Shown here: piece by piece, positions 6,558-41,872 of the stretch
Position numbering within the stretch: the first letter of the stretch is position 1
How the letters are laid out: each line of letters opens with the position of its first letter
Source: Faecalibacterium sp. CAG:74
GTDB lineage: Archaea > Thermoplasmatota > Thermoplasmata > Methanomassiliicoccales > Methanomethylophilaceae
Reading direction: 5' to 3'
Length of the DNA: 64,000 nt
Assembly (NCBI GenBank): GCA_963635855.1
Contig: CAVHHN010000001.1
Span: 1,820 to 65,819 of the forward strand
The notes under the pieces: model-generated
Database searches by the model: none
Told to the model about the DNA's origin: nothing
Seen by the model: the letters and a program-made list of their open reading frames with translations, nothing else
Program-made: the position numbers and the translations under genes

Positions 6558-7700
6558 TCAAGGCATCAAAGCAATATTCTCGCTACTAATGATATCCTTG
6601 TGCTTCATCTTGGTACCGAGAATTGCCTTTGCCTCATCTGACCGCATCCCACGGATGCGGTTGATCTCCTCGGCACTGTAATCCGGACTTCCGCGTGCGA
6701 TGACCGCAGTACCACATACGATATCGACAACATCACCTGCTTCAAATGAGCCAGATGCAAATTTCACACCTACCGGCAGAAGAGATCTATGAGATTGAAG
6801 TGCCTTTGATGCCCCCTCATCGATTATTATTTTGCCACTTACAGATACAGACTTCATCCAACGTCTTTTCTTGGTGATCGCAGAATCGGCAAGGAAAAGC
6901 GTACCGACAGCTTCACCATTGACCACACGTTCGATCACATTGTGCGTGGCACCAGATGCGATCACCATCATACATCCTGCATCTTGGCAGATTTTGGCGG
7001 CCTTGATCTTGGTCTTCATTCCACCAGTACCGGCCTTTGATCCAGGACCGCCGGCGATGTTCTCGATCGTGTCGTCGATATCTGAAACAACCTCTAGGAG
7101 TTTGGCATCTGGATCTTTACGTGGATTGCCGGAATATAATCCGTCCACATCTGAAAGGATCAGTAAAAGGTCCGCATCGGCCCTGCTTGCGATGACAGCA
7201 GATAAAGTATCATTATCACCGAACGCGACACCGATCTCTTTGATACATATCGCATCGTTCTCATTGAAGATCGGTATAACGCCATATTTTAGAAGAGTGG
7301 ATACTGTGTTGTTAAGGTTACGCACAGTTTCACGATCAGAATAATCGTCCATGGTAATGAGGATCTGTGCGACATGAAGTCCGAACTTCTGGAAGCTGTC
7401 ATTCCATTTTTGCATCAATATGCCCTGTCCGACAGAGGCTGCAGCCTGCTTAATGGGCACTTCATTAGGTTTCGGACGAGCATTCATGGCTTGTAATCCA
7501 ATGGCGACCGCCCCGGAAGATACTATCAGGACGTCTTTCTTTGCTTCCACCAAACGATGTATCTGTTCTGCGACATCGTCCATGAACTCCTCGCTGATGG
7601 TGGGTCCTCCACGAGTTATGGTAGAAGACCCGACTTTGATCACGATACGTTCCACAGACTCCAAATGGCCCCTTCTCGATACCGTATTCTCACTCCCCAT
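6558..7700 (-). CDS. proB: Glutamate 5-kinase with C-terminal PUA domain
   Basis: Amino-acid-kinase N-terminus (IVIKVGSSTIT) and a PUA-like C-terminus (GKIIIDEGA...LLPVGV). The start was trimmed to ATG 7700 (MGSENTV...); the ORF-track start at 7826 would overlap proA by 137 nt. Confidence 0.85.
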   Translation of the reverse strand: MGSENTVSRRGHLESVERIVIKVGSSTITRGGPTISEEFMDDVAEQIHRLVEAKKDVLIVSSGAVAIGLQAMNARPKPNEVPIKQAAASVGQGILMQKWNDSFQKFGLHVAQILITMDDYSDRETVRNLNNTVSTLLKYGVIPIFNENDAICIKEIGVAFGDNDTLSAVIASRADADLLLILSDVDGLYSGNPRKDPDAKLLEVVSDIDDTIENIAGGPGSKAGTGGMKTKIKAAKICQDAGCMMVIASGATHNVIERVVNGEAVGTLFLADSAITKKRRWMKSVSVSGKIIIDEGASKALQSHRSLLPVGVKFASGSFEAGDVVDIVCGTAVIARGSPDYSAEEINRIRGMRSDEAKAILGTKMKHKDIISSENIALMP

Positions 7701-26152: not shown

Positions 26153-28033
26153 TCATTCAGCATTAGAACAGTCAAGTTTCTTCCACACTGTGAATATGTT
26201 CTGTCCATTGAAGTACTTATAATCTGCATATGTCACTAGTTTTTTGATCATATGGATACCAAATCCGCCGATAGGCCAATCACTGAGGTTCTCATCAATT
26301 GTGATCTCCTCTAAATTGAGAGGATTGAACGATTCCGAACTATCTGCAAAGGTCAGTTTGATCTCATTATCACGTGAACTGCAGTAGACGGTAACATCTC
26401 CCTCCTGATCGCCTTTGGAATGGTCACAGATATTGACGAATATCTCCTCTGCGACGATCTCCATTTTAAGAACGTCTTTGATCTTAAATCCTTGAGCGAC
26501 TAGTTGGGATTCCAAAAAGGCATTGATATTCACAAGTTCCTCCACATTTCTGGGAACGACAAATTTGTGATACTGCGGACGGTTAACAATGAAACACAGC
26601 ATTGTTATGTCATCTGACTGTGTCCACGTTCCTACGAACTCTTTTACCGCAGATTGGACCGCCTTCACGATAGATTTCGCATTGTTGTCTCCCACACTGT
26701 TGAGAACATTCTCCAAACGTTCACGACCGAACTGTTCGCCCGCCTCATTAAATGCCTCATTGACACCATCAGTGTAACAAAAGAAGGTGTCGACATCAGA
26801 CAGAGCGATCGTATCGGTTTTGTAGTGTATTGACCGGTTCACACCGATCATCAATCCTTTTTTCACAGGAAGTTTTTCAAAGCTTCCATTAAGGTGCCTG
26901 ACCATTGGCGGAGGGTGCCCTGCGTTGGCATATTGCAAAACACCGGTATCGGAATCATAGATCCCCATCCAAACTGTAATGAACTGCTCCGCAGCATTTC
27001 TGGAACATATCTCTTTGTTGAATGCGGTGAGGATACGTCCGGGATCATTGCGCAACATGGCTGTGGCCCTTAAAGCTCCCATGGCGCTCATCATCATCAA
27101 TGAAGCGGGGAGCCCTTTATCAGACACATCAGCAACAACGAAGGCAGTGAGGTTCCTCCGAATAGCGAAACAATCGTAAAAATCCCCTGCAACCTCAGTA
27201 GCAGGCACCATTATCCCATAGATATCCAAAGACCGGGTGATAGGAAATTCAGCCGGGAGTGATGCTAATTGTATGTCCCTTGCAATAACAAAATCATGTT
27301 CTGCACGTTTAACATTCTCTTGAGTTTCTATTAACCGCATATACTTGTAAAACAGAACAAGAGCCAAGTATCCGAATATTAAGATGGATAGATCGGACCA
27401 AATATAAAGGGTCCAGAGCTGTTCAGGATGGTCCCACTGGTGCCATTCCGAGATCATAGACGGGATGAAAAAAGCATATATGGCAGCAAGCAGCAAAGGT
27501 GCCACATACCATATTTTATATTTCTTTAGAAGACCGAGTACTACAGAAATTGCTGTTGCGGCGATCACCAACAGATCTACATAGTTCTCCGCTTGGAGAT
27601 ACATGCAATTGTGTAGAAAAAGAACGTGGATCGATAGAGAGATGGCAGACACCACCACCACATACACAGGTCCACCGATCATACCTGTCAGTATGATCGG
27701 AATGTACGCAGTTTGGAATAATGCTTGAGAACCTACCAGGATACTATCCATAATGGTCATACTGACCATCAGAGCGACAAAAGCACATTTGTAATACCAC
27801 TTAGAAGAACTGGATTCCGTAAGTTCGTGGAACATGCGCCCGCGGAACAACATGTATATGATCAACATGGATACAATGGTCCACGCGACACCGTCACTCA
27901 TGCCACTCGTGACTCTGTAATATGGAAATTCTTGTACTCCCAGATTGTAATTTACGTATGCGGCACAAACCGAAATAAGCGTCAAAAGAATAAACAAATT
28001 CTGTAGAACAGCCACTTTGTTATCGATTTTCAT
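26153..28033 (-). CDS. Polytopic membrane PP2C (SpoIIE/RsbU-type) phosphatase fused to a C-terminal RsbW/SpoIIAB-like HATPase domain
   Basis: About 10 TM segments at the N-terminus. PP2C metal motifs are present: GDFYDCF, VADVSDKGLPASLMM, YTDGVNEA and SDDITMLCF. The C-terminal ~130 aa carry the N-box-like EEIFVNICDH and FADSSESFNP. Confidence 0.8.
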   Translation of the reverse strand: MKIDNKVAVLQNLFILLTLISVCAAYVNYNLGVQEFPYYRVTSGMSDGVAWTIVSMLIIYMLFRGRMFHELTESSSSKWYYKCAFVALMVSMTIMDSILVGSQALFQTAYIPIILTGMIGGPVYVVVVSAISLSIHVLFLHNCMYLQAENYVDLLVIAATAISVVLGLLKKYKIWYVAPLLLAAIYAFFIPSMISEWHQWDHPEQLWTLYIWSDLSILIFGYLALVLFYKYMRLIETQENVKRAEHDFVIARDIQLASLPAEFPITRSLDIYGIMVPATEVAGDFYDCFAIRRNLTAFVVADVSDKGLPASLMMMSAMGALRATAMLRNDPGRILTAFNKEICSRNAAEQFITVWMGIYDSDTGVLQYANAGHPPPMVRHLNGSFEKLPVKKGLMIGVNRSIHYKTDTIALSDVDTFFCYTDGVNEAFNEAGEQFGRERLENVLNSVGDNNAKSIVKAVQSAVKEFVGTWTQSDDITMLCFIVNRPQYHKFVVPRNVEELVNINAFLESQLVAQGFKIKDVLKMEIVAEEIFVNICDHSKGDQEGDVTVYCSSRDNEIKLTFADSSESFNPLNLEEITIDENLSDWPIGGFGIHMIKKLVTYADYKYFNGQNIFTVWKKLDCSNAE

Positions 28034-29760
28034 ACGGTCACCGTGAGATTGTTCAGTTTCAGGGAATAACTATATTCGATATTCTTCGCGGCAGCATGTA
28101 CGACCTTGATCCCCAAATGTCCGTCCGTGTCAGCGACAATGGGATTGAATCTGACACCGTCATCCCGCATACGAAATATCACATCATCTCCTTCCTTCAC
28201 GATGCGTATATCGATAGAGTGATCCGTCTCATCATTGAAAGCATGTTCCACGACATTTCCTGCCATCTCCTCTATACAGAGAGCAATACGATCTGCCCGG
28301 TCCTGAGGGATGTTGTGCTCCACACACATTTCAGAGATCTTCCCAACTAGCCCCGAGACCTCTTCCATTTTGTTTGTTATGGACAATTCACACACCGTAT
28401 CAATGTCGAAGACGCTGGATTTCGCGACAACGAAGTCCTCCATATGACGAGGGAATTTTCCCGACTTCGTCCAGATGAACAGCATGATGGTGAGAACGGA
28501 TAACACGTCCGCGAGGAAGAAGGAGATCCACACTCCGTCAAGACCTATGAGCGGGGCGAGGGCAAAAGACACTAGAATGACATACAGTGCACCCCTTGAT
28601 AGAGAGATAACATTCGACATCAGGAGATTTCCCATCGTCTGATACATATAAAGGAAGATCAGGCAAACGGTCGAAGTTGGCTGAGAGATGGCAAAAAGTC
28701 TGAGACATCTGGCCGCGAGGTCCAGATCCCCCCCGTCAGCGATGAACATCCCAGCGACTGGTTTTGCGAATATGAACAGCAAAACAGCCACTATTGTGGA
28801 TAGTGTGATCCCAGATTTCAAAGCGACGCGAAGTGTGTCTGTGATAGCCCTCCGATCCCTCTCTCCGAAGAAGATCCCACACATCGTGGCGACCATGAGT
28901 CCATATCCGGTGGAAATGGCGATCAAGAACTGGTATACATTGGTCTGAACCGATAATGCCAGCACGGCCGCCGATCCTCCAAGGGACAGCAGGAACACAT
29001 TGAGCACGAGGTTTTTGATGGTCTGAGATCCCCTGTTTATAGCGGTGGGAAGACCGGCCATACAGATATCTTTCAGTACAGTCCGGGAACCAGAGGGGGA
29101 ACAAAACCTGAGCATACGTTCCCTTCTTTTAAAATGGGTCATGGCAATGAACAATCCGGCAAGATTGCCGACCATGATGGAGGCCCCGATACCAAAAAGA
29201 CCCAGATTGGTGGATGATGCACAGAACAGTGCCACCACGGTGTTCGCGACAATGACCACAATCATGGAGATCAAGGAAATTCTCTGGTTGCTATCCATCC
29301 TCAGATAGATCAACAGGTTCTGTAACAGTAGAAAGGGTATGGCGGATATCCCAAGACCGCGAATGTAGCCGGCCGCCATGCCCTCGATGTTGTCACCAGC
29401 TCCGAACAGGTTCGAAAGCGGATCAGCGAGTAAAAGACAGAACAGCATATACACTGCGCCCACCGATATAGAAGACAACGTCGTCGCAGTAAAGTTCAGC
29501 TGAACTGCAGTCATGTCCCCTCTACCGATATGATTGGCACATTTTATCGCACCCCCGTTGCTGAAGATGCCGGATACAGCCCCTAGAAGAAGGAATACGG
29601 GGGATGTGAGACCGAAGGCAACAAGGGCGTCGGAACCTAACAGTTGCCCGATGATAAGACCATTGATGACCATGCTCAGCGTGGCTGTAAGCGTCACTAA
29701 AATAGTAACAGCCAAATGACCGTGCAGGACCTTCTCGATCAGATAGGTGTTGGTATGCAT
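28030..29760 (-). CDS. MATE-family exporter fused to a C-terminal RsbW/SpoIIAB-like HATPase domain
   Basis: About 12 TM segments over roughly 440 aa with a MATE-like duplicated layout. The soluble tail carries CIEEMAGNVVEHAF (E..N...H N-box) and RMRDDGVRFNP (G1-box-like). ATGA overlap with the PP2C gene. Confidence 0.75.
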   Translation of the reverse strand: MHTNTYLIEKVLHGHLAVTILVTLTATLSMVINGLIIGQLLGSDALVAFGLTSPVFLLLGAVSGIFSNGGAIKCANHIGRGDMTAVQLNFTATTLSSISVGAVYMLFCLLLADPLSNLFGAGDNIEGMAAGYIRGLGISAIPFLLLQNLLIYLRMDSNQRISLISMIVVIVANTVVALFCASSTNLGLFGIGASIMVGNLAGLFIAMTHFKRRERMLRFCSPSGSRTVLKDICMAGLPTAINRGSQTIKNLVLNVFLLSLGGSAAVLALSVQTNVYQFLIAISTGYGLMVATMCGIFFGERDRRAITDTLRVALKSGITLSTIVAVLLFIFAKPVAGMFIADGGDLDLAARCLRLFAISQPTSTVCLIFLYMYQTMGNLLMSNVISLSRGALYVILVSFALAPLIGLDGVWISFFLADVLSVLTIMLFIWTKSGKFPRHMEDFVVAKSSVFDIDTVCELSITNKMEEVSGLVGKISEMCVEHNIPQDRADRIALCIEEMAGNVVEHAFNDETDHSIDIRIVKEGDDVIFRMRDDGVRFNPIVADTDGHLGIKVVHAAAKNIEYSYSLKLNNLTVTV

Positions 29761-29763
29761 CGC

Positions 29764-30060
29764 TCATTCCAGAGTGAGGATCTCGTCGAGGCCCGTCTCC
29801 GTGAAAACCTCCATAACGAGTTCTGGCACATTCTTGAGAGTTAATTTTCCGTCATTCTTGACCATTTTTTTCTCAAGTGCCAGAACAACCCTGAGACCAG
29901 CACTGGATATGTAGATACATGGTGACAGGTCGAGTATGATGCTCTTGGTATCATCACTTATCTGTTTGTTCATATCAGCCTCGAATTCAGGAGAGGTCGT
30001 CCTGTCCAATTTACCCTCAATAACCGCTTTGATCTCTGTACCGTTCTTTAAGATCTTCAC
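29764..30060 (-). CDS. STAS-domain protein (SpoIIAA/RsbV-type anti-anti-sigma-like)
   Basis: 98 aa with DLSPCIYISSAGLRVVLAL, which matches the STAS phospho-serine loop (D.s...fi.SsGL..L). GTG start forms a GTGA overlap with the GH3 gene stop. Confidence 0.85.
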   Translation of the reverse strand: MKILKNGTEIKAVIEGKLDRTTSPEFEADMNKQISDDTKSIILDLSPCIYISSAGLRVVLALEKKMVKNDGKLTLKNVPELVMEVFTETGLDEILTLE

Positions 30061-31757
30061 TGTTCTCCCTCCCTGTCAATAAGCACCCTGAAGAAGCGGA
30101 GTTGTACTTCATTCATGATTATTTTAACTGGTTTTACCTGAGTGGATGCTCCACCCATCATAATTTGTTTGTCTCTCCACAGAGCATAGGTCTCGTCCTG
30201 CAGATAGTGGGATACGACCGGTCCGGTAAGATTCATCTCAAATCTGTAATCAAGCAATGGATTTACCTTCACAAGCTCCTTCTGCAGACGGGCGGATAAT
30301 TCACTGAGGCCCACTTTGGGATGTCTAGGACATTCTATAAAGAACCTGTAGCATGGTGGCGCCATATCAGTGTCCGGATACACACAGAAGTCCATATAGT
30401 CGAAGTCCAGTTCCTTCGCGGTGGCGTCCATTGCAGCTCTAAGAGTTGGTTCATAGGTTTTCTCACCGTTGAGGTTGACGCACAGGTCTATACGATATAG
30501 ATATTCCATGGTGGGAAGGTTGTTGTACATCTTTACGAAACGGATAGCATCACGTGTTCTGTAACGATAAAATCCCGACATAGTGGTCAAAATGACCTCA
30601 TATTCCTTTCCGATCTCCACTTCGGTCAAGGTGCATGTCTTCGACGGATCCTCTTCCCCAAGGGGAAGGAACTCTAGGAACATTGTGTTGCCCAGTGGTG
30701 CGAAGTCCGAGACGTTGAAATCATAGGGAGTGGAGATCGCACCCTCAGATGCGACAAGCCCGGTCATAAAGATCGGTACCTCCTCCGAAATGAAGTTATC
30801 CCTGAGTTTACGCAGATACGCCGAGAATGTTCCGGTACTGACCCCGAGAATGAAAACAAGGTTTGGCCAGATCCTCTTAGCGATCGTGTTATCGAAACCT
30901 TCTGTGAATATTTTCCTAAGTTCCTGTGCCCTTTCAGGCATCGGAATCAATTCCGATTCTAGCTTTGTACGGACAGCATCTGTCATCTTCACCGCAGGAT
31001 CGATCTTTCCGGACTCGATGTCGTCGCATAGCATTTTCCAGTTGTCCCGGATGTAATGGAACATATCCAAAAGGAAGGTGATGAAGGTTGTCTGCAAGCT
31101 CGTCACATCCCTGCATACCAGACCATACCTTGCATGCAAGTATCTGGTGTCCGTCTGTTTATCCGGACAGACCGCTTCAAGAGGGGAGGTGAACATCCCC
31201 GATTGCGTTACCTGCCAATCATACACGGCCTGCCCCGAAACACCAAAATATCTCTTAGGTGGGGTACCGATAACGGTCATGGCATATGCTTCAGACACAG
31301 AAAGTGCCCTTCCTTTGAGGAAATCGGTACCGAACCTCCTCACCGCCATAGCATAAGGGCTCGCAAAAGCGTAATCGATCATATAATCCATAGATATGGA
31401 GGACATGGGAATCCTCTTAGGGTTACCCATTGTTCCAGAGGACCTGTTGTATTGGGCCACACCATATACAGAGTGAAGGTGCTCCTCATTACCTGTCAAT
31501 TCACGGACCACATATTCTGCATAATCATCGAAGACCGTGAGCGGTACCTTCTTCTTGTAATCCTCAATTGTCTTGATCTCGGAAAACCCGTACTTTCTTC
31601 CATACTCAGTATTCCCGTTGTCTGCCAGGATCTTGAAGAGAAGTTTCTCCCCGATACTGCCGGGGTCCTTGGAAAATGCCTCCAGGTCGTCCAACGCTTT
31701 TTTACCGCGTTCTGCCGCGGAACGATTCAGCTGATAGGTTTTCTCCGAATCTACCAT
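30057..31757 (-). CDS. GH3-family adenylate-forming acyl-acid amido synthetase-like protein
   Basis: About 566 aa. The N-terminal region (EKLLFKILADNGNTEYGRKYGFSEIKTIEDYKKKVPLTVFDDY), SSGTMGNPKRIP and the overall length match the GH3 (auxin-responsive promoter) family. The start was trimmed to ATG 31757. Confidence 0.7.
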   Translation of the reverse strand: MVDSEKTYQLNRSAAERGKKALDDLEAFSKDPGSIGEKLLFKILADNGNTEYGRKYGFSEIKTIEDYKKKVPLTVFDDYAEYVVRELTGNEEHLHSVYGVAQYNRSSGTMGNPKRIPMSSISMDYMIDYAFASPYAMAVRRFGTDFLKGRALSVSEAYAMTVIGTPPKRYFGVSGQAVYDWQVTQSGMFTSPLEAVCPDKQTDTRYLHARYGLVCRDVTSLQTTFITFLLDMFHYIRDNWKMLCDDIESGKIDPAVKMTDAVRTKLESELIPMPERAQELRKIFTEGFDNTIAKRIWPNLVFILGVSTGTFSAYLRKLRDNFISEEVPIFMTGLVASEGAISTPYDFNVSDFAPLGNTMFLEFLPLGEEDPSKTCTLTEVEIGKEYEVILTTMSGFYRYRTRDAIRFVKMYNNLPTMEYLYRIDLCVNLNGEKTYEPTLRAAMDATAKELDFDYMDFCVYPDTDMAPPCYRFFIECPRHPKVGLSELSARLQKELVKVNPLLDYRFEMNLTGPVVSHYLQDETYALWRDKQIMMGGASTQVKPVKIIMNEVQLRFFRVLIDREGEQ

Positions 31758-32107
31758 AAACCTCGAACAAAGTTCTGTTATAAATGTGTGGCGAACATAT
31801 ATCCAGGGCCCAGAAACCAAGATAACTCACTAGATCGGATCAAGTCCGCAAAATAACTGAGAAGAACACTAGATTGTTTTTCCTCGGTCGATCAATGTCC
31901 CTATTTCGGGGCAGTAGGGAGTATAAAAATTTAAGCATACTTAAACTAAGGTCAATTTGTGTAATTATTACCAAAAATACACACATACACTAAATGTGCC
32001 AGATTAAAAATTCATTTTCATAAATACCTCGGAATAACAAGGCATTGTTATCTGGGACAGGTCTTAATATTAGTACCAGGTTCTACATATAATAAGGAGG
32101 TACACCA

Positions 32108-33025
32108 GTGGCGATTTTTTTCAAAGGTGGCGAACAGCTGTTCAACGAAGGTATCGACCTCGTCGGCAGAAAAAATTTCAAAGACGCAAAACGCAAATTC
32201 CTCGATGCTATCGAAAAGGGATACAACAAGGACGGACTGGCAAACGTCTATGCCTCACTGATCACAGTAGGTGAGAACAGGTCCAATATAGGCGCATACA
32301 AATCATTACTCGACGATCTGAACAACCTTCCCGTTGGATCTTTCAAGTTCGGTCTCACAGATGTTGTCACAGAGGACCTTCGCACTGAGGTCCAACTGGA
32401 CATTGATGAGATCAATGCTAGCAACATCAATGATTCCGATTACCAGACTAAAGGAAACGCATACATCGAGTGCGCAGGAAAGTTCTCATCACTCATAGGT
32501 GATAAAAGCCTTGCTCTCGACGAGATCTTCAAAGGAAACTCGGTTGCCACCGGTACCAGAGAAGGACTCATCCTCCAGGCAGAGGGATACAGCATCCTCG
32601 GTAAAGGAACCGTCAACGCTGACCCTAAACTCGCTGCGGAATATATGCAGATGGCATACAACTTCCGCAAACAACTCGGAGACAAAGGAGAAGAAGAACT
32701 TGGGCTGTCCAAAGACTATGCCAGGTCCGCCAAATGTTGGATCTGTGGCAGGCCGGCGAACGGAGAAGGTATTCACTTCATGGCCATGCGGAGTACGATC
32801 GAACCAGTGTTTGCGAGCATGACCACGAACGATGTTGTCAAACCGATCTCCGAAGACATGGAAAATATCTATGTGTGCACTCCCTGTTACACTGCGATCT
32901 CGAACAAATCCGATGAGATCTCGAGATACTACTACGACAGTGCAATGGCAGAGATGAGGGCCATGGAAGCTAGGCTTGAGGCCGAGATCTCATCCCTCAG
33001 ATTCTCTGCAGCAATGCGCAGGTGA
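32108..33025 (+). CDS. Hypothetical protein: helical (TPR/MIT-like) N-terminus, internal Cys4 zinc finger, coiled-coil tail
   Basis: GTG start 7 nt after AAGGAGGT. CWICGRP...CTPCYTAI forms a CxxC-N41-CxxC pair. Confidence 0.6.
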   Translation: MAIFFKGGEQLFNEGIDLVGRKNFKDAKRKFLDAIEKGYNKDGLANVYASLITVGENRSNIGAYKSLLDDLNNLPVGSFKFGLTDVVTEDLRTEVQLDIDEINASNINDSDYQTKGNAYIECAGKFSSLIGDKSLALDEIFKGNSVATGTREGLILQAEGYSILGKGTVNADPKLAAEYMQMAYNFRKQLGDKGEEELGLSKDYARSAKCWICGRPANGEGIHFMAMRSTIEPVFASMTTNDVVKPISEDMENIYVCTPCYTAISNKSDEISRYYYDSAMAEMRAMEARLEAEISSLRFSAAMRR

Positions 33026-33029
33026 TTGA

Positions 33030-34574
33030 ATGGATGAAATGATGGCACTGAGGTGTAAATACTGCGGTGCCCCACTTGATGAAAACGCGGTAAAGGATGA
33101 TAGTCCGTATGTGACATGTACCAGTTGCGGTACCACTCAGCAGAAATTGGACGCCCGCGAATACCTGAACCAATTGATGGGACAGGTACGTTCCTGGGTC
33201 AACAGCGCAATGCCTGGGGGAATGGCCTCATTCACCGGAAACCAGAATGTCGATAGTGTTGCAAGACACAATATCTTCATGACCAACTTCAAACCCCGTA
33301 TCGATATGGAGTTCACGAAGTACAAATTCGGATTCAACAACCTATTGTCCCAGGTCATGATGGTCCTGCCTTTCACTGAAGACAAGAATGTGAAGTCCAA
33401 CGACACATCGAACTCGGTGTTCGAGTTCGGTGCCAAGATGAAGGAGATCTCCCCGCTTGCGGTCAGTGACGAGTCCACATCGATCATGAACGAGGTCTCT
33501 GGGGTCACGGATGCTTATGCACTTCTGATCAACAACACAGAGCTCATTCAGAACGATAAACCTGGAAGATTCACTCTCATGGCCAGCAATTTCACCATCG
33601 CTTCCCAGGATTTCGCCAAGATCAAAGGATATGAACCTGCACAGAAACGTTTCGAAGGACTTGCTGCTCTATGTCAGGGATGTGAAAAACTGACCAATGG
33701 AGATATTGCCTCCTCCTTCGGACTTTTCTCTAAAGGAAAATCCCTCCTTGAAGAGGCCTCCAAAGAAATCACAGGAAACCTCAAGGTCGCAGTGATGAGT
33801 CAGGCCGTGTCGCAGGAGATCAAACAAGCGGACGTCCTCATTGAACTGGCAGAATATGTCAACAACATGGGCGGTTCAAAAGAGGTTTTCGATGCGGTCA
33901 GGCGCATATTCACCTACCAATTCCCTGCCACGGGAAACTGGTCGTTCCTTCTGAAGAATCGTGACAGGTTCTCCGAGATATTCACTTTCATGTCGACAGC
34001 GGTCAAGGCCCGTTCTGGATCTGGCACTATTCCTGTTACATCTGGATCGGGGAATATCCTTGTCCCCTTCTGGTATGTCAAATTAAAATACAGTTTCCAG
34101 ACCGGGTCTCTGTGGAAGAAACACAGTGTTGAGGTTGAAGAACCCTTGCTTGTTCCTGCAGACTTCGTCATCGATGGAGAATGCCTGAGCAACCCTCGCA
34201 CTGCCGTGACCGATGTGTTCTCCGTCAAAGGAAACAACGGAATGTTCGCAGGACTCACCGGCAATGAAACCAGCATCAGCAACTCTCAAGGAATCGACAG
34301 ACTGATCGAGTCTGCATCCCAGAGTTCCGCAGATGGCAGGGAAGTTGTTGTACCGTTGAGCACCAGGCGTGAAGCAGAAAGGATCAGCGAATCCTATGTT
34401 CAGGCGGTCTCGAGGGTCGAATCAAAACTCAAACTCAGCAACCCGGACGTGATCGACCTGATCTACATCCCCTTCACTAAATCCAACAACAGGTACCAGC
34501 CCAATGATTCGTTCGGCATACTTCTCCCCAAGAGGGTTGCCAATACAGATCTGTCTCAATTGATAGTAATATGA
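33030..34574 (+). CDS. Hypothetical protein with an N-terminal zinc ribbon
   Basis: CKYCGAPL...CTSCGTTQ at residues 9-35, AGGTGA RBS, and a 4-nt gap to the upstream gene. Confidence 0.6.
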   Translation: MDEMMALRCKYCGAPLDENAVKDDSPYVTCTSCGTTQQKLDAREYLNQLMGQVRSWVNSAMPGGMASFTGNQNVDSVARHNIFMTNFKPRIDMEFTKYKFGFNNLLSQVMMVLPFTEDKNVKSNDTSNSVFEFGAKMKEISPLAVSDESTSIMNEVSGVTDAYALLINNTELIQNDKPGRFTLMASNFTIASQDFAKIKGYEPAQKRFEGLAALCQGCEKLTNGDIASSFGLFSKGKSLLEEASKEITGNLKVAVMSQAVSQEIKQADVLIELAEYVNNMGGSKEVFDAVRRIFTYQFPATGNWSFLLKNRDRFSEIFTFMSTAVKARSGSGTIPVTSGSGNILVPFWYVKLKYSFQTGSLWKKHSVEVEEPLLVPADFVIDGECLSNPRTAVTDVFSVKGNNGMFAGLTGNETSISNSQGIDRLIESASQSSADGREVVVPLSTRREAERISESYVQAVSRVESKLKLSNPDVIDLIYIPFTKSNNRYQPNDSFGILLPKRVANTDLSQLIVI

Positions 34575-34583
34575 GGTGAGAAC

Positions 34584-34961
34584 ATGGAGAACACAGGTAA
34601 CAAATACAGAACACGCGAGGCCGTGGTGGTAGCATTCGTGCTCATCGCTTTGGCCTTTGCGGTCATAATATATGGGGCCACCGACGCAGGAGTTGTCGGT
34701 GCCCTTGGCGCATTCCTAGCTGTGGCAGGTGTCGGACTTGCCGCATTGTCTACGCTTTTCGACAGTACCCCTGACAAATTCGGACCTTCTGAGATGCTGT
34801 ACCGTATGGTCTTCGGCACCCTTATGTTCGTCGCCGGAGTTGTGTGTCTGATGCATGCCTATGATGTAAAATGGTACATCACCGTGGCGGTCGTCATCAT
34901 CGCTATCGCGGTCGTCGGTCTTTGTGCGGCACTTGTGAACGGTAAGAATTCAAAATACTGA
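34584..34961 (+). CDS. Small integral membrane protein (about 4 TM)
   Basis: 125 aa with four hydrophobic helices and a GAGGTGA RBS. Confidence 0.6.
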   Translation: MENTGNKYRTREAVVVAFVLIALAFAVIIYGATDAGVVGALGAFLAVAGVGLAALSTLFDSTPDKFGPSEMLYRMVFGTLMFVAGVVCLMHAYDVKWYITVAVVIIAIAVVGLCAALVNGKNSKY

Positions 34962-34970
34962 GGAATCAAA

Positions 34971-35510
34971 ATGACAAATGCATTGGAAAACAGCGCAGAA
35001 GAGTCCATCGCAAAAAACAGGACGCTCATCGAGAGGATCTCGATGTATGTCCCGTTCTACAAAGGATACAAACAGAAGAATCTCCGCAGGGATGAGGACC
35101 GCGCGATCAGAGAGGTCGTGGCCAAGGTCCTTACTGCGATCAAGAACGACCTGGCAAACGCTTCCAGGGCCACCATAGGGGACCTTGATGCAATGAGAGA
35201 TATGGAACGTATCAAGACCAAGGTCGACAGATATTGTACTGATGTGAAGAAAGCGGTCTCAGGATACAGTGGGATCCACGCCACGGTCAAGATCCTCGAG
35301 TCCGAGCTCGACCGTGTTATCGAGTGGGATGCAAACCTGATCGATGATGTCGAACTGCTCAAACAGCAGTCTGAGAAAATGATGCATGACGCCGATGAAG
35401 GGCTCAGCATCAAAGCAGACATGAGACTCATCGAACAGACCGTTGATGAAATGATCAACACATTCCGCCAGAGAGACAACGTTATGAGGAACCTTGTCGA
35501 GGAGGCTTGA
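34971..35510 (+). CDS. All-alpha coiled-coil protein (possible PspA/ESCRT-III-like; unverified)
   Basis: 179 aa, charged and heptad-like, with no Cys or TM segment. It sits directly before the SPFH gene. Confidence 0.5.
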   Translation: MTNALENSAEESIAKNRTLIERISMYVPFYKGYKQKNLRRDEDRAIREVVAKVLTAIKNDLANASRATIGDLDAMRDMERIKTKVDRYCTDVKKAVSGYSGIHATVKILESELDRVIEWDANLIDDVELLKQQSEKMMHDADEGLSIKADMRLIEQTVDEMINTFRQRDNVMRNLVEEA

Positions 35511-35512
35511 AC

Positions 35513-36640
35513 ATGGCACTAGGAAAGAAAGAAGAGAAAAAGACCAATGTGGTATTTTGGAAAGAACAAGGTCCCAATGACATCATCTATGTGTCACCAG
35601 ACGACGATCTAAGAGTGATCACCTCGGTGACCGTTCCCGAGCACGCTGTCGCCCTTTTCATAAGGGATGGACAGCTTCAGGGAGTTCTAGAGCCCGGAAG
35701 GCATGTCGTCACCTCGAACAACATCCCCTGGCTCACTGCATTGTACAACAAGATGCTCGGATACAGGGACACCCCGTTCAAAGTTTGGATCGTCTTCATT
35801 TCCCTGAAGATGTTCAACGGTAAATGGGGTATCCGCGGAATGATCAAGGCCGCACAGGGCTACGATGTGCCCATCACCCTCATGGCCAATGGAGAATTCC
35901 AGTTCAGGATCACCGACGTGTCCGTGTTCTACACCCAGGTATTGGGTGGAATGAAAACCTACTCTACTGGAGATGTCAATGCTTTCATGAAGAGCTTCAT
36001 CAACGAGCAGATAACCCAACAGCTCGCACAGAAGTACTACATGGAGGTCATGCAGAATCTAGAGGTTGCTTCCACCAGCACCAAGATCCTCCTCGACCCC
36101 TATTTCCAGCAGAGGGGTATCGAACTTCTCTCTCTGAAGATCAACGAGGTCTCCACCACTGAGGAAGAGAAAACCAAGGTATTCGAATATCTCCAGTTCA
36201 GCAGCAGCAACGGAGAAGCGTTCAAGAGGTATGAGGTCATGGATAGAATGGCAGATGCTATCGGAGATTCGCAAGGTGGTGCAGCAATGGGTGCAGGAAT
36301 GCTCCTGTTCCCTCAGATGTACCAGCAGCTTAACCAACAGTCCGTACAAGGTGTGCAGAACCAACAGGCCGCTGCACAGGCACAGAAGGTCATGTGCCCA
36401 TACTGCGGATCGCTCAATGAATACCCATACAGGTTCTGTGGAAACTGCGGAAAGCCTTCTCCCCAACTTCAGCCCGTTGCGACTGCAACACCCACCCCTA
36501 CCGCTCAGGCCGCACCTGCGACCAATGGGGCCACTGCAGCACCTGGCACATTCAAACGTTGCCCCTATTGTGGCGAAGATCTTAGCACTCTCAAGAAGAC
36601 CCCTAAGTTCTGCCCATACTGTTCTGAGGAACTTTCGTAA
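35513..36640 (+). CDS. SPFH/band-7 family protein of the COG4260 (B. subtilis YdjI-like) type with two C-terminal zinc ribbons
   Basis: The N-terminal pattern VPEHAVALFIRDGQLQGVLEPGRHVV...NIPWL...PFKVWIVFIS...KWG is typical of that family. Q-rich and PTA-rich linkers are followed by CPYCGS..CGNCG and CPYCGE..CPYCSE. ATG 35513 lies 7 nt after GAGGAGG; the ORF track starts at TTG 35507. Confidence 0.72.
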   Translation: MALGKKEEKKTNVVFWKEQGPNDIIYVSPDDDLRVITSVTVPEHAVALFIRDGQLQGVLEPGRHVVTSNNIPWLTALYNKMLGYRDTPFKVWIVFISLKMFNGKWGIRGMIKAAQGYDVPITLMANGEFQFRITDVSVFYTQVLGGMKTYSTGDVNAFMKSFINEQITQQLAQKYYMEVMQNLEVASTSTKILLDPYFQQRGIELLSLKINEVSTTEEEKTKVFEYLQFSSSNGEAFKRYEVMDRMADAIGDSQGGAAMGAGMLLFPQMYQQLNQQSVQGVQNQQAAAQAQKVMCPYCGSLNEYPYRFCGNCGKPSPQLQPVATATPTPTAQAAPATNGATAAPGTFKRCPYCGEDLSTLKKTPKFCPYCSEELS

Positions 36641-36650
36641 ACCTATTAAC

Positions 36651-36666
36651 CCGGCCTTCGGGCCGG
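36651..36666 (+). terminator. GC hairpin after the five-gene operon
   Basis: CCGGCC-TTCG-GGCCGG lies 11 nt after the stop and is followed by ACCATTTTAT. Confidence 0.5.
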
Positions 36667-36687
36667 ACCATTTTATAAAGTGATATT

Positions 36688-37531: not shown

Positions 37532-38062
37532 ATGACAAACGAACTTGAAAAATACGTCACCACGATTCCAGATTTTCCCAAACCAGGGATCATGTTCAGA
37601 GACATCACTTCCGTTGTTCAGAGCCCAGATGGATTCAAGATGGCCGTGGACCAATTGATCGCTGCACTTGACGGTGTCGATTTCGATTATATCATCGGAA
37701 CAGAGTCCAGAGGATTTGTCTTCGGTGCACCTGTGGCGTATGCACTCCACAAAGGATTCATTCTTGCTAGGAAGAAGGGAAAACTTCCCAGAGAATGTGT
37801 CTCCGAAACCTACGATCTTGAATATGGACAGGCCACACTTGAGATCCACAAAGATGCTTTCCCACCTAAATCCAAGATCGTTATCCTCGATGACCTCATT
37901 GCTACTGGCGGAACCACCAAGGCGGTCTGCAAAATGATAGAGAAACTTGATGGGACCGTTGTCAAGATCGGATTCGTCATGGAACTTGCAGGATTCAAAG
38001 CAAGAGAAAAGGTCCTCAGTGGGTACGACGTATTCAGTTTGATCACCTACCCCGGCATCTGA
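37532..38062 (+). CDS. apt: Adenine phosphoribosyltransferase
   Basis: PDFPKPGIMFRDIT and the PRPP loop VILDDLIATGGT; 176 aa. Confidence 0.92.
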   Translation: MTNELEKYVTTIPDFPKPGIMFRDITSVVQSPDGFKMAVDQLIAALDGVDFDYIIGTESRGFVFGAPVAYALHKGFILARKKGKLPRECVSETYDLEYGQATLEIHKDAFPPKSKIVILDDLIATGGTTKAVCKMIEKLDGTVVKIGFVMELAGFKAREKVLSGYDVFSLITYPGI

Positions 38063-38121
38063 GCACGTACAATCCTAGGACATTTGTTATGTCCCAGCAA
38101 TCTATTTTATCTGTCAGAAGG

Positions 38122-38195
38122 AGGGCCTGCCGGGATTCGAACCCGGGTCATTAGTTCCGAAGACTAGCAGGATATCCTGGCTACCCCACAGGCCC
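38122..38195 (-). tRNA. tRNA-Arg (anticodon TCG), no complete encoded CCA
   Basis: The reverse complement folds with acceptor GGGCCTG/CAGGCCC, anticodon loop CTTCGGA and T-loop GTTCGAATC. The body is closely similar to the tRNA-Arg at 45807-45883. Confidence 0.8.
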
Positions 38196-40012: not shown

Positions 40013-41872
40013 ATGAATTTGAAAAACAAAAGCGGCATGATTGCCCCCCCCCTGATCTGCCTGATGCTTATCGTTACGGCATTCACAATGGTCGTCAGCG
40101 ATAAGGCAGAAGGTTCGGTAGGTGGCGAACTAAACGACAGTTCAGGTTACTACTATAGCGGTGCGATGATGGAATCCTTATCGAATTCCAGAGGCATCAG
40201 TAGCGATAACTACAAAGTAAATTGGTCCCTGGAAAATTCTATAGGATATGCAATATCCGGTAACTATGCATATGTTGTTACCAGCGACGGCAAGCTCAAC
40301 AAAGTAAGTCTTGATGATGGTACAATCATCAAATCTGTCGAGAGAGGCTCTACCTCCAGTGCTTGGCCTGCAGTGAACGATGAGTTGGTCTTAGATCCAA
40401 TAACTGGTAATGTCTATGATCTCGATCTCAATCAAAAATACCAGATTAATGCTACTTGCGAGTATGGATATTATAATGATGGGCACTGGTATGTTGTTCA
40501 GAGGGACAAAACTTGTAAATGTTTCACAGTCGAGGATGAAGATACTGCTGATGCAAAGAATGTTCAGCAGCCTGTATGGTCCACTACATTTACATTCTTC
40601 ATCGATGCAAATACGATGGCTCTGTCCATTGCTTTTGGTGAAACAACATTATACTACCCAGGAATCGGTGCAAGCGATCAGAATCAGCGCATCATCTACT
40701 GTGTCGACAAATCCACCGGTGAACAGTTGGATACTTTTGAAATGACCGAGATCAGATCCACCTACTGGAACTCTGGATTCATTTCTTATTATGATGGTAC
40801 AGTTTATGTTTCTGCTCATTGGGACACTATGTTCTGGCCTATTGGAGACGGAACCAAGCCTGTATTTGTTCAGATACAGACCAACAGTGACGGTAAATTC
40901 GATCCCAGCACTGTGAAATATACATGCAGTGGTATCGACAATTCATATTCGTCAGCAGTAGTGAAGGTCGGAAACCTTGGATTTGTCCATACTGGAAGCA
41001 ACTTTATCGTTTTTGATCTGAATGATAATATGAAGATTCTTGCTCAGACCCCTGCCGATAAAAAGCTCGCCAAGATCTACAGCAATATCGCGATTGCCTA
41101 CGGAAGCAATGATCTGGTCTATGGGTATGCGATTCCATCAGGTGTACCAACAACTCTTGCAGATGCGGCTGATGGAATTGTTGGTTTTGAATACAGAATA
41201 TCCACAAATGAAATCAAAGCCTTTGAACTCAATGTGGGTGAAACCAAAACTAACACCGCTAACACTATAAAGATCGGTCCAAATGGGGAACTTCTTTTTG
41301 CAAAGAACAACTCAGTTCTTTATTGTATCACACAAGATGTTAAGTCGTACTATGTGAATTTTGATGCTAACGGAGGAAGTGGTGATATGGCCAGAGGCGA
41401 TGTTTCCGGCACGTACACTTTGCCTGCATGTACCTTCACTGCCCCCGAAGGTAAGAAGTTCTTGGGTTGGGCTTATTCTCCGACAGGGGAAGTTATCTCT
41501 GGTACCACCATCAATGTGACCGCTGATGTGACCTTGTATGCCATATGGGGCGATTCCAGTTATTCAATCAGTTTCAATGCCAATGGCGGCTCTGGAACCA
41601 TGGCTAACGTGTCGGTCCTCCCCGGTACCTACTCTTTGCCTGCATGTTCGTTCACTGCCCCTGATGGTAAGAAATTCTTGGGTTGGGCTTATTCTTCGAA
41701 CGGTCCTGTGATATCTGGTACCACCATCAATGTGACATCCGATGTGACCTTGTATGCCATATGGGAAGACAACCACCCTTCGTCATCAAATACGGTTACC
41801 ATAATAATTTGTGCAGTTGTGGTGCTGGCAATTGTTGGTGCTGCATTCCTTATATACAAACACAGACCTTGA
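40013..41872 (+). CDS. Secreted surface protein: N-terminal signal/TM, beta-rich (propeller-like) region, two Listeria/Bacteroides-type repeats, C-terminal TM anchor
   Basis: 619 aa. Two 71-aa repeats of the form F.ANGGSG.M......GTY.LP.C.FTAP.GKKFLGWAYS..G.VISGTTINVT.DVTLYAIW. The C-terminus is VTIIICAVVVLAIVGAAFLIYKHRP. Confidence 0.7.
   Translation: MNLKNKSGMIAPPLICLMLIVTAFTMVVSDKAEGSVGGELNDSSGYYYSGAMMESLSNSRGISSDNYKVNWSLENSIGYAISGNYAYVVTSDGKLNKVSLDDGTIIKSVERGSTSSAWPAVNDELVLDPITGNVYDLDLNQKYQINATCEYGYYNDGHWYVVQRDKTCKCFTVEDEDTADAKNVQQPVWSTTFTFFIDANTMALSIAFGETTLYYPGIGASDQNQRIIYCVDKSTGEQLDTFEMTEIRSTYWNSGFISYYDGTVYVSAHWDTMFWPIGDGTKPVFVQIQTNSDGKFDPSTVKYTCSGIDNSYSSAVVKVGNLGFVHTGSNFIVFDLNDNMKILAQTPADKKLAKIYSNIAIAYGSNDLVYGYAIPSGVPTTLADAADGIVGFEYRISTNEIKAFELNVGETKTNTANTIKIGPNGELLFAKNNSVLYCITQDVKSYYVNFDANGGSGDMARGDVSGTYTLPACTFTAPEGKKFLGWAYSPTGEVISGTTINVTADVTLYAIWGDSSYSISFNANGGSGTMANVSVLPGTYSLPACSFTAPDGKKFLGWAYSSNGPVISGTTINVTSDVTLYAIWEDNHPSSSNTVTIIICAVVVLAIVGAAFLIYKHRP
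41348..41773 (+). repeat. Tandem 213-nt coding repeat (2 copies)
   Basis: Copies at 41348-41560 and 41561-41773 are in frame. Their 3' halves are nearly identical at the DNA level. Confidence 0.85.

Follow-up and report, generated by a model that had tools for sequence, protein, structure and literature searches.

The element described here is a five-gene operon located at positions 32108-36640 of the plus strand in a 64-kb stretch of DNA from a member of the Methanomassiliicoccales. This whole stretch, at its full length of 64 kb, is referred to as the window. The genes are named g1 to g5 in their order of transcription; g5 encodes a protein with an SPFH domain, and g4, directly upstream of it, encodes a helical protein that belongs to a large family found in bacteria and archaea. 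The list of open reading frames (ORFs) gives five plus-strand ORFs at the same positions as a preliminary description of this DNA: g1 (32108-33025; GTG start, 305 amino acids, aa), g2 (33030-34574; 514 aa), g3 (34584-34961; 125 aa), g4 (34971-35510; 179 aa) and g5 (375 aa from the ATG at 35513 or 377 aa from the TTG at 35507, ending at 36640).

The genes are separated by 4 nucleotides (nt) between g1 and g2 and by 9 nt both between g2 and g3 and between g3 and g4. With the ATG at 35513 as start of g5, g4 and g5 are 2 nt apart; with the TTG at 35507, they overlap by 4 nt. The ATG is the better start, because the motif GAGGAGG lies 7 nt upstream of it and because public gene calls on identical contigs give a protein of 375 aa. 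The close packing of five plus-strand genes that had been described at first is thus borne out, with gaps of 2-9 nt. Each gene had also been said to follow a GGAGG-like motif, and a Shine-Dalgarno-like motif is found at all five starts (AGGAGGT, CAGGTGA, GAGGTGA, TGAGGA and GAGGAGG, from g1 to g5).

The A/T-rich intergenic region between the divergent GH3 gene and g1 (31857-32107, read directly from the plus strand) is presumed to be the promoter region of the operon. It includes two TATA-like stretches upstream of g1, TTAATATTA around 32063-32072 and TATATAATAA around 32085-32094, and the ribosome-binding motif AGGAGGT of g1 at 32095-32101. A promoter scan gave TTAATA...TATAAT at 32064-32093, the model being of bacterial type and the host archaeal. 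At the other end, terminator scan and direct reading agree on a 6-bp all-GC hairpin, CCGGCC-TTCG-GGCCGG (36651-36666), followed by ACCATTTTAT (36651-36676 for the whole feature, plus strand). The GC hairpin of the preliminary description is therefore present and has a T-run behind it; hairpin and T-rich tail likely mark the end of the transcription unit. The next gene, for an inositol monophosphatase, begins no earlier than 36688. No RNA gene was found inside the operon when the whole window was scanned with Rfam and for tRNAs.

Genes identical to those of the operon occur on contigs of two other assemblies of metagenome-assembled genomes (MAGs), GCA_963647045.1 and GCA_963656955.1. Homologs of g2 and g4 are found in Methanomassiliicoccales, including 'Thermoplasmatales archaeon BRNA1' (TALC_01484 and TALC_01486, respectively), Candidatus Methanoplasma, Methanomethylophilaceae and Candidatus Methanogranum. 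The preliminary description had proposed that gene order be compared across archaeal genomes. The order of the five genes is kept in BRNA1 (271, 516, 127, 180 and 369 aa for the products of g1 to g5), in Candidatus Methanogranum (308, 512, 125, 166 and 371 aa) and in a third MAG with quite different flanking genes (309, 509, 123, 179 and 357 aa), and the gaps between the genes stay within 2-26 nt across four divergent lineages. A metagenome scan seeded with g2 gave 80 loci with 38-72% identity, in which the partners were searched for with local hidden Markov models (HMMs). Wherever the contig has room, the partners are found beside g2: g1 in 72 of 72 loci, g3 in 69 of 69, g4 in 63 of 63 and g5 in 49 of 49. 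Complete loci are colinear on one strand in 44 of 46 cases, and the two others are artefacts of stop-to-stop ORF coordinates. The five-gene cluster is therefore a fixed feature of the clade. Its two best-conserved proteins are those of g5 (64-73% identity to orthologs) and g4 (51-65%), followed by those of g2 (46-54%), g1 (41-52%) and g3 (34-46%). A literature search for TALC_01483 to TALC_01487 found no paper that names these genes.

Products of the five genes

The g5 protein matches PF13421 (Band_7_1) at 81.7 bits for a cut-off of 24 (E 7.3e-23, profile positions 14-204 of 211), an assignment that is also precomputed for identical public proteins. The match to PF01145 is weaker (E 4.9e-8). 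Three zinc-ribbon models score above their cut-offs (given in brackets): Zn_ribbon_3, 29.5 (27); DUF7577, 28.8 (28); DZR, 28.0 (27.3). The SPFH domain is followed by a Q-rich linker, a first zinc ribbon (C295, C298, C309, C312), a P/T/A-rich linker and a second zinc ribbon (C350, C353, C367, C370), which is the layout that had been described from the translation. The four CxxC pairs are conserved in orthologs. No transmembrane (TM) segment is found, since no window of 19 residues has a Kyte-Doolittle hydropathy of 1.6 or more. BLASTP aligns the SPFH domain with that of Bacillus subtilis YdjI (22% identity over 165 aa, E 1e-13) and, in a second segment, the zinc ribbon (E 4e-4); of the YdjI sequence used as query, only the two ends were verified, these agreeing with primers in PMC8581546. 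Judged by family match, C-terminal zinc ribbons, lack of TM segment and similarity to YdjI, g5 encodes a soluble SPFH protein of the YdjI/SamI type, and the earlier assignment to the YdjI type can be retained.

The AlphaFold 2 (AF2) model of the g4 protein, built from an alignment of 30 sequences, has a pLDDT of 82 and a pTM of 0.76. Its helices span residues 3-24, 40-68, 72-101, 110-142 and 148-178, with a conserved loop after the first. The protein is most simply read as an N-terminal helix and four helices of about 30 residues that are predicted to form a four-helix bundle, the bundle being read from the helix pattern of the model and not from inspected coordinates. This description fits the model better than the coiled coil of the preliminary description. 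A Foldseek search of the PDB returned generic helical bundles: the best match is the soluble domain of IncA (E 8e-3, TM-score 0.47), other top matches are designed bundles and none reaches E 1e-3. No Pfam family matches the g4 protein at E <= 1. A LemA-like or other named helical family was considered and rejected, as no Pfam family recurs in 48 members of the g4 family; the best Pfam matches of these members are coiled-coil-family noise (best 25 of 103 families listed).

The sole curated model touched by the g4 protein is NCBIfam NF047596 ('LIMLP_15305 family protein'), which carries no function. The match spans residues 27-172 and model positions 25-173 of 175 (E 4.8e-10), with 39.6 bits for an equivalog cut-off of 210; by this score g4 encodes a distant relative, and not a member, of NF047596. 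Since the model is from Leptospira, the match means that the g4 family reaches the spirochaetes. The sole paper found that mentions LIMLP_15305 names it only as the neighbour of a small RNA (PMC7567364), and literature searches for PF13421, COG4260 and LIMLP_15305 gave nothing functional. A search with a profile built from Methanomassiliicoccales sequences found 1130 representatives of 50%-identity clusters at E <= 1e-3, including 496 at E <= 1e-10. Most members have 165-185 aa and are matched end to end. Look-up of the clusters gave few names, those named being from Bacillota and Methanofastidiosa. No paper that describes the g4 family or its pairing with Band_7_1 proteins was found in the literature searched, to which subscription journals did not belong.

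Two motifs characterise the g4 family. Motif 1 is P28-x-x-x-G32-Y33...R39-R40-x-x-D43-x-x-x-R47 in the g4 protein and IPG[YF]xGY[KR]xKExRRExD[KR]LxR as the hallmark of the family. Motif 2 is A95-x-x-G98-Y99-x-G101...D120, with the family form AxYGYxGFFD...D. In a cross-phylum alignment of 48 sequences, P28, Y33, D43, R47, G98, D120 and R168 are invariant. Both motifs flank loops at the same end of the bundle, as judged by the order of the helices in the model, and the conserved residues may therefore form one functional surface.

The proteins encoded by g1 and g2 are soluble; g3 encodes the only membrane protein of the operon (hydropathy of the five proteins: four hydrophobic segments in the g3 protein, none in the other four). 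In the g1 protein, an N-terminal TPR motif (residues 8-45, approximately) is followed by a helical middle part and a zinc ribbon (C210, C213, C257, C260); its C-terminal helix carries the conserved motif MRAMEARLQAEI. It had been described as a helical TPR/MIT-like protein with an internal CxxC...CxxC. The two CxxC pairs are invariant in 18 homologs. As to the TPR, 13 of the 18 homologs match TPR_2 (best E 6.6e-5, all below the gathering score), and the g1 profile matches consensus TPR proteins in the PDB over residues 8-42 (E 1.7e-10). One TPR repeat is detectable; Pfam scans of g1 and its homologs gave no MIT match.

The 514-aa g2 protein had been noted for its N-terminal zinc ribbon, and the four cysteines (C9, C12, C30, C33) are invariant among homologs. 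Its AF2 model (pLDDT 80, pTM 0.64) has a helix at 42-60, a disordered linker at 60-73, a helical-repeat domain at 76-330 and an alpha/beta domain at 334-505. There are 202 homologs; all those with a named source are of Methanomassiliicoccales type, and most are unnamed metagenomic proteins. No named family was found. Whole-chain Foldseek matches to TPR proteins, Bro1, SRP68 and the MIT domain of calpain-7 are insignificant (E >= 0.4), and the alpha/beta domain has no Foldseek match in this whole-chain search, which is dominated by the helical domain. The zinc ribbon and the next helix match zinc-ribbon proteins of other archaeal loci with a g4-like and an SPFH gene (hhalign 84%, E 7e-6). Homology to these short proteins does not extend beyond the ribbon and one helix, as the C-terminal domains are dissimilar (E 0.3), and a likeness seen by eye between 'LVPFW' and 'YLPFW' is unsupported.

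The g3 protein is the mini-protein with four TM segments that had been described. A conserved PDKFGPSE loop lies between the second and third segments (hydropathy and alignments). No consistent Pfam family is found in 14 members, and a relationship to 4-TM proteins of LiaI/LiaF type was rejected, as neither DUF2157 nor any other family matches consistently. Word-indexed and pattern-seeded searches found no relatives of g1, g2 or g3 outside the Methanomassiliicoccales.

Gene pairs of the g4 and SPFH families beyond the order

The gene pair formed by g4 and an SPFH gene is widely conserved across bacteria and archaea. In the window, g4 lies directly upstream of the Band_7_1 SPFH gene. A genome scan with an alignment of 19 relatively close sequences of the g4 family, a choice that biases the result towards Chloroflexota, gave at least 578 stretches, of which the best 80 loci were kept, all from Chloroflexota (loci are designated by L followed by a number). 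In 75 of these 80 loci, the g4-like gene is directly followed on its own strand by a g5-like ORF (phmmer E-values down to 4e-33), the median gap being about 35 nt; of the five exceptions, three or more are truncated at a contig end. The SPFH partners are strong Band_7_1 members (1e-70). Many of those from Anaerolineae (L068, 8559-9605, and most of L007-L086) end in HTH_17 (3.2e-10) and not in zinc ribbons, so that the C-terminal module of Band_7_1 proteins seems exchangeable. Accessory genes are frequent: a gene encoding a 173-aa protein with two TM segments, a winged helix-turn-helix (wHTH) and a zinc ribbon (2TM-wHTH-ZnR) lies upstream of the pair in 33 Anaerolineae loci, and a DUF2207 protein gene is added in 36 of the Chloroflexota loci.

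The pair is also found in other lineages. The g4-like gene precedes a Band_7_1+DZR gene in an Armatimonadota locus (L089) and in a Bacillota MAG (L094), where the stop of the g4-like gene directly abuts the SPFH start. The SPFH partner of the Bacillota g4-like gene aligns end to end with the same YdjI sequence (E 3e-27). In one archaeal context (L087, L088), the pair has a zinc-ribbon protein gene and a divergent M48 peptidase gene upstream; in a second (L177, L178), the two genes are separated by 1 nt. In the bacterial locus L095 (4359-8906), the g4-like gene and the Band_7_1+DZR gene are separated by two Toastrack (DUF4097) genes, and a 173-aa protein with an N-terminal zinc ribbon is encoded upstream of the g4-like gene. 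Upstream accessory genes encode a zinc-ribbon protein in L087, L088, L090 and L095 and a 2-TM protein in L177. In L090, of archaeal context, the gene downstream of the g4-like gene is split (6558-7486) into fragments of 45 and 234 aa with no Pfam match on record; its relatives L087 and L088 have an intact Band_7_1+DZR gene of 329 aa at this position, and the broken SPFH gene of L090 may result from a frameshift, be a pseudogene or reflect an assembly error.

One locus, the Anaerolineae MAG contig JBHIEC010000085.1 (L064, 53-6302), carries a single operon that includes both a g4-like gene and pspA. Its seven genes encode, in order, DUF2207, a 2TM-wHTH-ZnR protein, a small nucleotidyltransferase, a g4-like protein, a fusion of g4 and DUF4178 (5e-24), PspA_IM30 (8e-51) and Band_7_1+DZR (4e-62). 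Among the 97 sequences searched (96 loci and the window), this is the only one with a PspA gene. Several other members of the g4 family are fusion proteins, with DUF4178, an N-terminal zinc ribbon or a TM helix as the added part. DUF4178, Toastrack and Band-7 with a zinc ribbon are partners of PspA according to Ravi et al. 2024 (PMC11237479); judged by gene and domain content, the g4 family shares a functional neighbourhood with PspA.

Some other genes recur near such pairs. M48 (HtpX-like) peptidase genes are found beside g4-SPFH clusters in two archaeal lineages (minus strand: L087, 4095-5147; L088, 4035-5087; L090, 4046-5113; plus strand: L093, 3659-4546), which could hint at membrane-protein quality control or be a coincidence. 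A phosphoribosyltransferase gene lies directly downstream of the SPFH gene in seven Anaerolineae loci (e.g. L076, 9629-10171) and at least one gene downstream of it in Methanomassiliicoccales (window, 37532-38062; L091, 10551-11096; L092, 12898-13422); the recurrence in two distant lineages may be due to chance. An adenosine-specific kinase gene is found upstream in L068, L076 and L054.

Proposed SPFH complex and rival readings

The preliminary description compared the operon with pspA-ydjGHI of Bacillus. [quoted passage not shown] Part of the comparison stands (PMC8581546, PMC11237479). Both operons end with a gene for a Band_7_1 SPFH protein that is soluble, has no anchor of its own and carries a C-terminal zinc ribbon after a low-complexity linker, and each also encodes an integral membrane protein and a protein whose N-terminal part is a zinc ribbon. 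The rest does not. The archaeal operon lacks PspA (no PspA_IM30 match in the five proteins at E <= 1). It lacks a YdjH equivalent, as no TPM_phosphatase match is found in g1 to g5 and the g3 product is a bare 4-TM protein. It also appears to lack a YdjG look-alike: YdjG comprises a pair of zinc ribbons, a TM segment and a YpeB/NTF2-like domain (PMC11237479), whereas the g2 protein combines a single zinc ribbon with a helical-repeat domain and is free of TM segments. Finally, there are two extra genes, g1 and g4, the family of the latter being outside the published operon. The operon is not pspA-ydjGHI; the YdjI-type component alone is shared.

A second comparison concerns archaea. The 'Meth_adaptin' loci, which belong to archaeal ESCRT systems, encode a protein that combines SPFH, coiled-coil and zinc-ribbon parts (Makarova et al. 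2024, PMC11188069), and the same authors point to YdjI-PspA as an ancient link between SPFH proteins and ESCRT-III. Both types of loci encode an archaeal SPFH protein with a zinc ribbon along with adaptor-like proteins that contain zinc ribbons. They differ in that the 'Meth_adaptin' loci contain Vps4, ESCRT-III, adaptin-appendage proteins, GOLD and ProX, all undetected among g1 to g5, and in that the window has no PspA-like gene.

The reading favoured here, with a probability slightly above even, is that the operon encodes a membrane-associated complex of the YdjI/SamI type built around the pair formed by g4 and the SPFH protein. The core would be the two-gene unit g4-g5. The soluble g5 protein would oligomerise under the membrane, as SPFH proteins do, and the helical g4 protein would bind it, probably by the conserved bundle end that both invariant motifs are predicted to form. 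The g4 protein would either regulate the assembly of g5 or couple g5 to other factors; the tight spacing of the two genes suggests co-expression in a fixed proportion. Because the g5 and g4 proteins have no membrane segment, the g3 protein is the candidate anchor. The g1 and g2 proteins, made of zinc ribbons and helical repeats, would be lineage-specific adaptors that connect the core to its anchor. In analogy to SamGHI of B. subtilis, the whole complex would sense or buffer perturbation of the membrane. Methanomassiliicoccales are reported to have no rigid cell wall, and for this reason membrane sensing would matter in these archaea. Gene content, operon structure, strict synteny, the family of g5, the wide conservation of the pair and the links of the g4 family to PspA, DUF4178 and Toastrack genes are shown by the analysis, whereas a physical contact between g4 and g5, the anchoring by g3, the work of g1 and g2 as adaptors and a function in membrane stress are inferred.

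Several points weigh against this complex. No relatives of g1, g2 or g3 are detectable beyond the order, so that their putative roles are deduced from composition. The putative contact between g4 and g5 is deduced from gene context. No sign of stress regulation was found in the window. The Anaerolineae SPFH partners that end in HTH_17 could point to a role related to nucleic acids instead. Chloroflexota are over-represented, as only the 80 top-ranking matches to a single query were kept. The pairing is not universal: L096 has a g4-like gene alone, with no SPFH gene within 5 kb, and is the sole locus in which the SPFH gene is simply absent. Conversely, no g4-like neighbour is reported for ydjI of B. 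subtilis, the published operon being pspA-ydjG-ydjH-ydjI (PMC8581546). The rival readings (analog of PspA, protease cage, nucleic-acid switch, defence) nevertheless have less support than the SPFH complex.

According to the first of these, which is unlikely, the g4 protein is a functional analog of PspA/ESCRT-III that polymerises on damaged membrane, is recruited by g5 and fills the slot of PspA. A PspA/ESCRT-III-like role had been proposed for this protein in the preliminary description. The analogy is suggested by the adjacency of g4 to a YdjI-type SPFH gene, as pspA shares the Bacillus operon (PMC8581546), by the partners common to both families (Band-7 with a zinc ribbon, DUF4178, Toastrack) and by the absence of a PspA gene from the window: the PspA HMM gave no match in a six-frame translation of the 64 kb and recovered, as a control, the PspA of L064 at 3.7e-30. 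PspA, Vipp1 and ESCRT-III proteins are moreover all-helical, of about 180-220 aa and cytoplasmic, and the g4 protein is predicted to be all-helical with an N-terminal helix. Relatedness, however, was looked for with four types of tests and none detected it. In the Pfam scan, g4 matches neither PspA_IM30 (PF04012) nor Snf7 (PF03357) at E <= 1, and both families are absent from the listed matches of 48 members of the g4 family at E <= 0.1 (best 25 of 103 families). The family profile finds no PspA, Vipp1 or CHMP among PDB sequences at E <= 10. The hhalign probability for the g4 family and PspA of E. coli and B. subtilis is 0.27%, the PspA sequences having been verified as PF04012 at 9e-49 and 2e-41. 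No PspA, Vipp1 or CHMP is found among the top 50 Foldseek matches in the PDB.

The shape of the protein also differs. The lengths of the g4 helices (four of about 30 residues in the predicted bundle) are not those of ESCRT-III, which has a long alpha1-alpha2 hairpin and shorter alpha3-alpha5 helices. By a crude measure, the N-terminal helix is rather hydrophilic: the best N-terminal 18-mer of g4 has a hydrophobic moment of 0.40 and a mean hydrophobicity of -0.25, whereas alpha-0 of E. coli PspA has 0.49 and +0.27 by the same measure. On sequence and model grounds, g4 is not a detectable member of the PspA/ESCRT-III superfamily, and the earlier proposal is not supported by these tests. Furthermore, a gene of the g4 family and a true pspA share the operon of L064. 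A simple substitution of PspA by g4 is therefore disfavoured, and this coexistence makes g4 a distinct component and not a replacement of PspA.

Equally improbable as an alternative to the g4-SPFH complex is a function in membrane-protein quality control, in which an SPFH cage would confine or regulate a membrane protease and the g4 and zinc-ribbon proteins would be regulators or substrate adaptors. Such cages around proteases are established in other SPFH families: HflK/C cages FtsH, and stomatin works with NfeD. A 24-mer SPFH cage is cited in PMC11188069. The M48 (HtpX-like) peptidase gene that is divergent and next to the cluster in L087, L088 and L090, and two genes upstream in L093, fits this function, as does an M50 peptidase gene near the cluster in L095. 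This protease adjacency is found in few loci only, and there is no protease gene in or next to the operon in the window, BRNA1 or Methanogranum. The g5 protein shares with HflK/C, stomatin and the flotillins FloA/FloT the SPFH domain, and large membrane oligomers are expected of it as of them. It differs from the cage-forming proteins in having no TM segment or hairpin to anchor it, no flotillin repeats and no NfeD or FtsH partner (no NfeD domain is found), and it belongs to the separate Band_7_1 branch.

A little less probable still is a membrane-tethered switch, in which zinc ribbons or HTH domains bind DNA or RNA and are released by the SPFH and g4 proteins on stress. It would give a transcriptional output like that reported for SamGHI, and loss of SamI in B. 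subtilis does lead to global transcriptional changes (bioRxiv 10.64898/2026.02.06.704340). The operon encodes four zinc ribbons, and in Anaerolineae the HTH_17 ends of the SPFH partners are accompanied by an upstream 2-TM protein with a wHTH and a zinc ribbon. Short zinc ribbons are, however, mostly modules for protein interaction or membrane-proximal modules in systems of the phage shock protein (PSP) type (PMC11237479); the Pfam scan detected no DNA-binding domain in g1 to g5, and no target is known.

A system of anti-virus defence or conflict, with an SPFH/zinc-ribbon complex as the sensor of infection at the membrane, is very improbable and was rejected: the cluster is compact and made of mostly unannotated, zinc-ribbon-rich proteins, and Band-7 proteins occur in some conflict systems (cited in PMC11237479, ref. 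81), but PADLOC has no match for the five proteins, PHROGs gives only weak zinc-ribbon matches that amount to noise, the g4 consensus has no match in 72,556 plasmids and 50,697 phage records, the GC content of the operon is unremarkable, and the cluster has a fixed place between housekeeping genes and is passed on throughout the order with no sign of mobility.

Neighbouring genes and wider meaning

A partner-switching set of bacterial type is located divergently upstream of the operon (26153-31820, minus strand), with overlapping stops and starts. According to the Pfam labels of identical public genes, it encodes a SpoIIE phosphatase with HATPase_c_2 (26153-28033), a fusion of a MatE transporter with an RsbW-like HATPase_c_2 kinase domain (28030-29760), a STAS protein (29764-30060) and a member of the GH3 family (30057-31820), all on the minus strand. 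The presence of the MATE-kinase fusion alongside GH3 is unusual for an archaeon. Downstream of the operon, a tRNA-Arg(TCG) gene (38120-38195, minus strand) lies between the phosphoribosyltransferase gene and a HypE/AIRS-like gene; four further tRNA genes are found in the window, none of them inside the operon. A protein with a weak Flg_new match (40013-41872) has 619 aa in the window, 618 aa in L002 and 552 aa in L001 (16982-18640), an otherwise near-identical MAG contig, and thus shows length polymorphism between close strains.

SPFH proteins of the YdjI/SamI type are widespread, have been studied in one organism and are explained there through PspA. SPFH scaffolds and their role in stress were already known; the five-gene setting and the widespread partner family are new, their function being deduced from gene context. 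In many bacteria and archaea, a frequent neighbour of YdjI-type SPFH genes is not PspA but an unnamed helical protein of 175 aa, whose family has more than 1000 clusters at 50% identity, has no Pfam model and is undescribed in the literature searched. With it, a branch of the SPFH superfamily that is poorly understood gains a concrete partner that can be tested, and the published network of PSP partners grows by one node, linked to PspA, DUF4178 and Toastrack. For Methanomassiliicoccales, which include gut and rumen methanogens, a strictly conserved membrane system of five proteins is defined.

A broader proposal, tentative and more probably wrong than right, is that a g4-family protein and a Band_7_1 SPFH protein form an ancient two-component unit of membrane surveillance that is independent of PspA. 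If so, at least four phyla of bacteria and several orders of archaea would have the unit, and g4, not being a relative of ESCRT-III, would represent a novel type of regulator or cargo of SPFH proteins. PspA would be one of several interchangeable accessories, along with DUF4178, Toastrack, zinc-ribbon and TM proteins, and the operon of Methanomassiliicoccales would be a five-subunit elaboration of this unit for cells that rely on the membrane alone.

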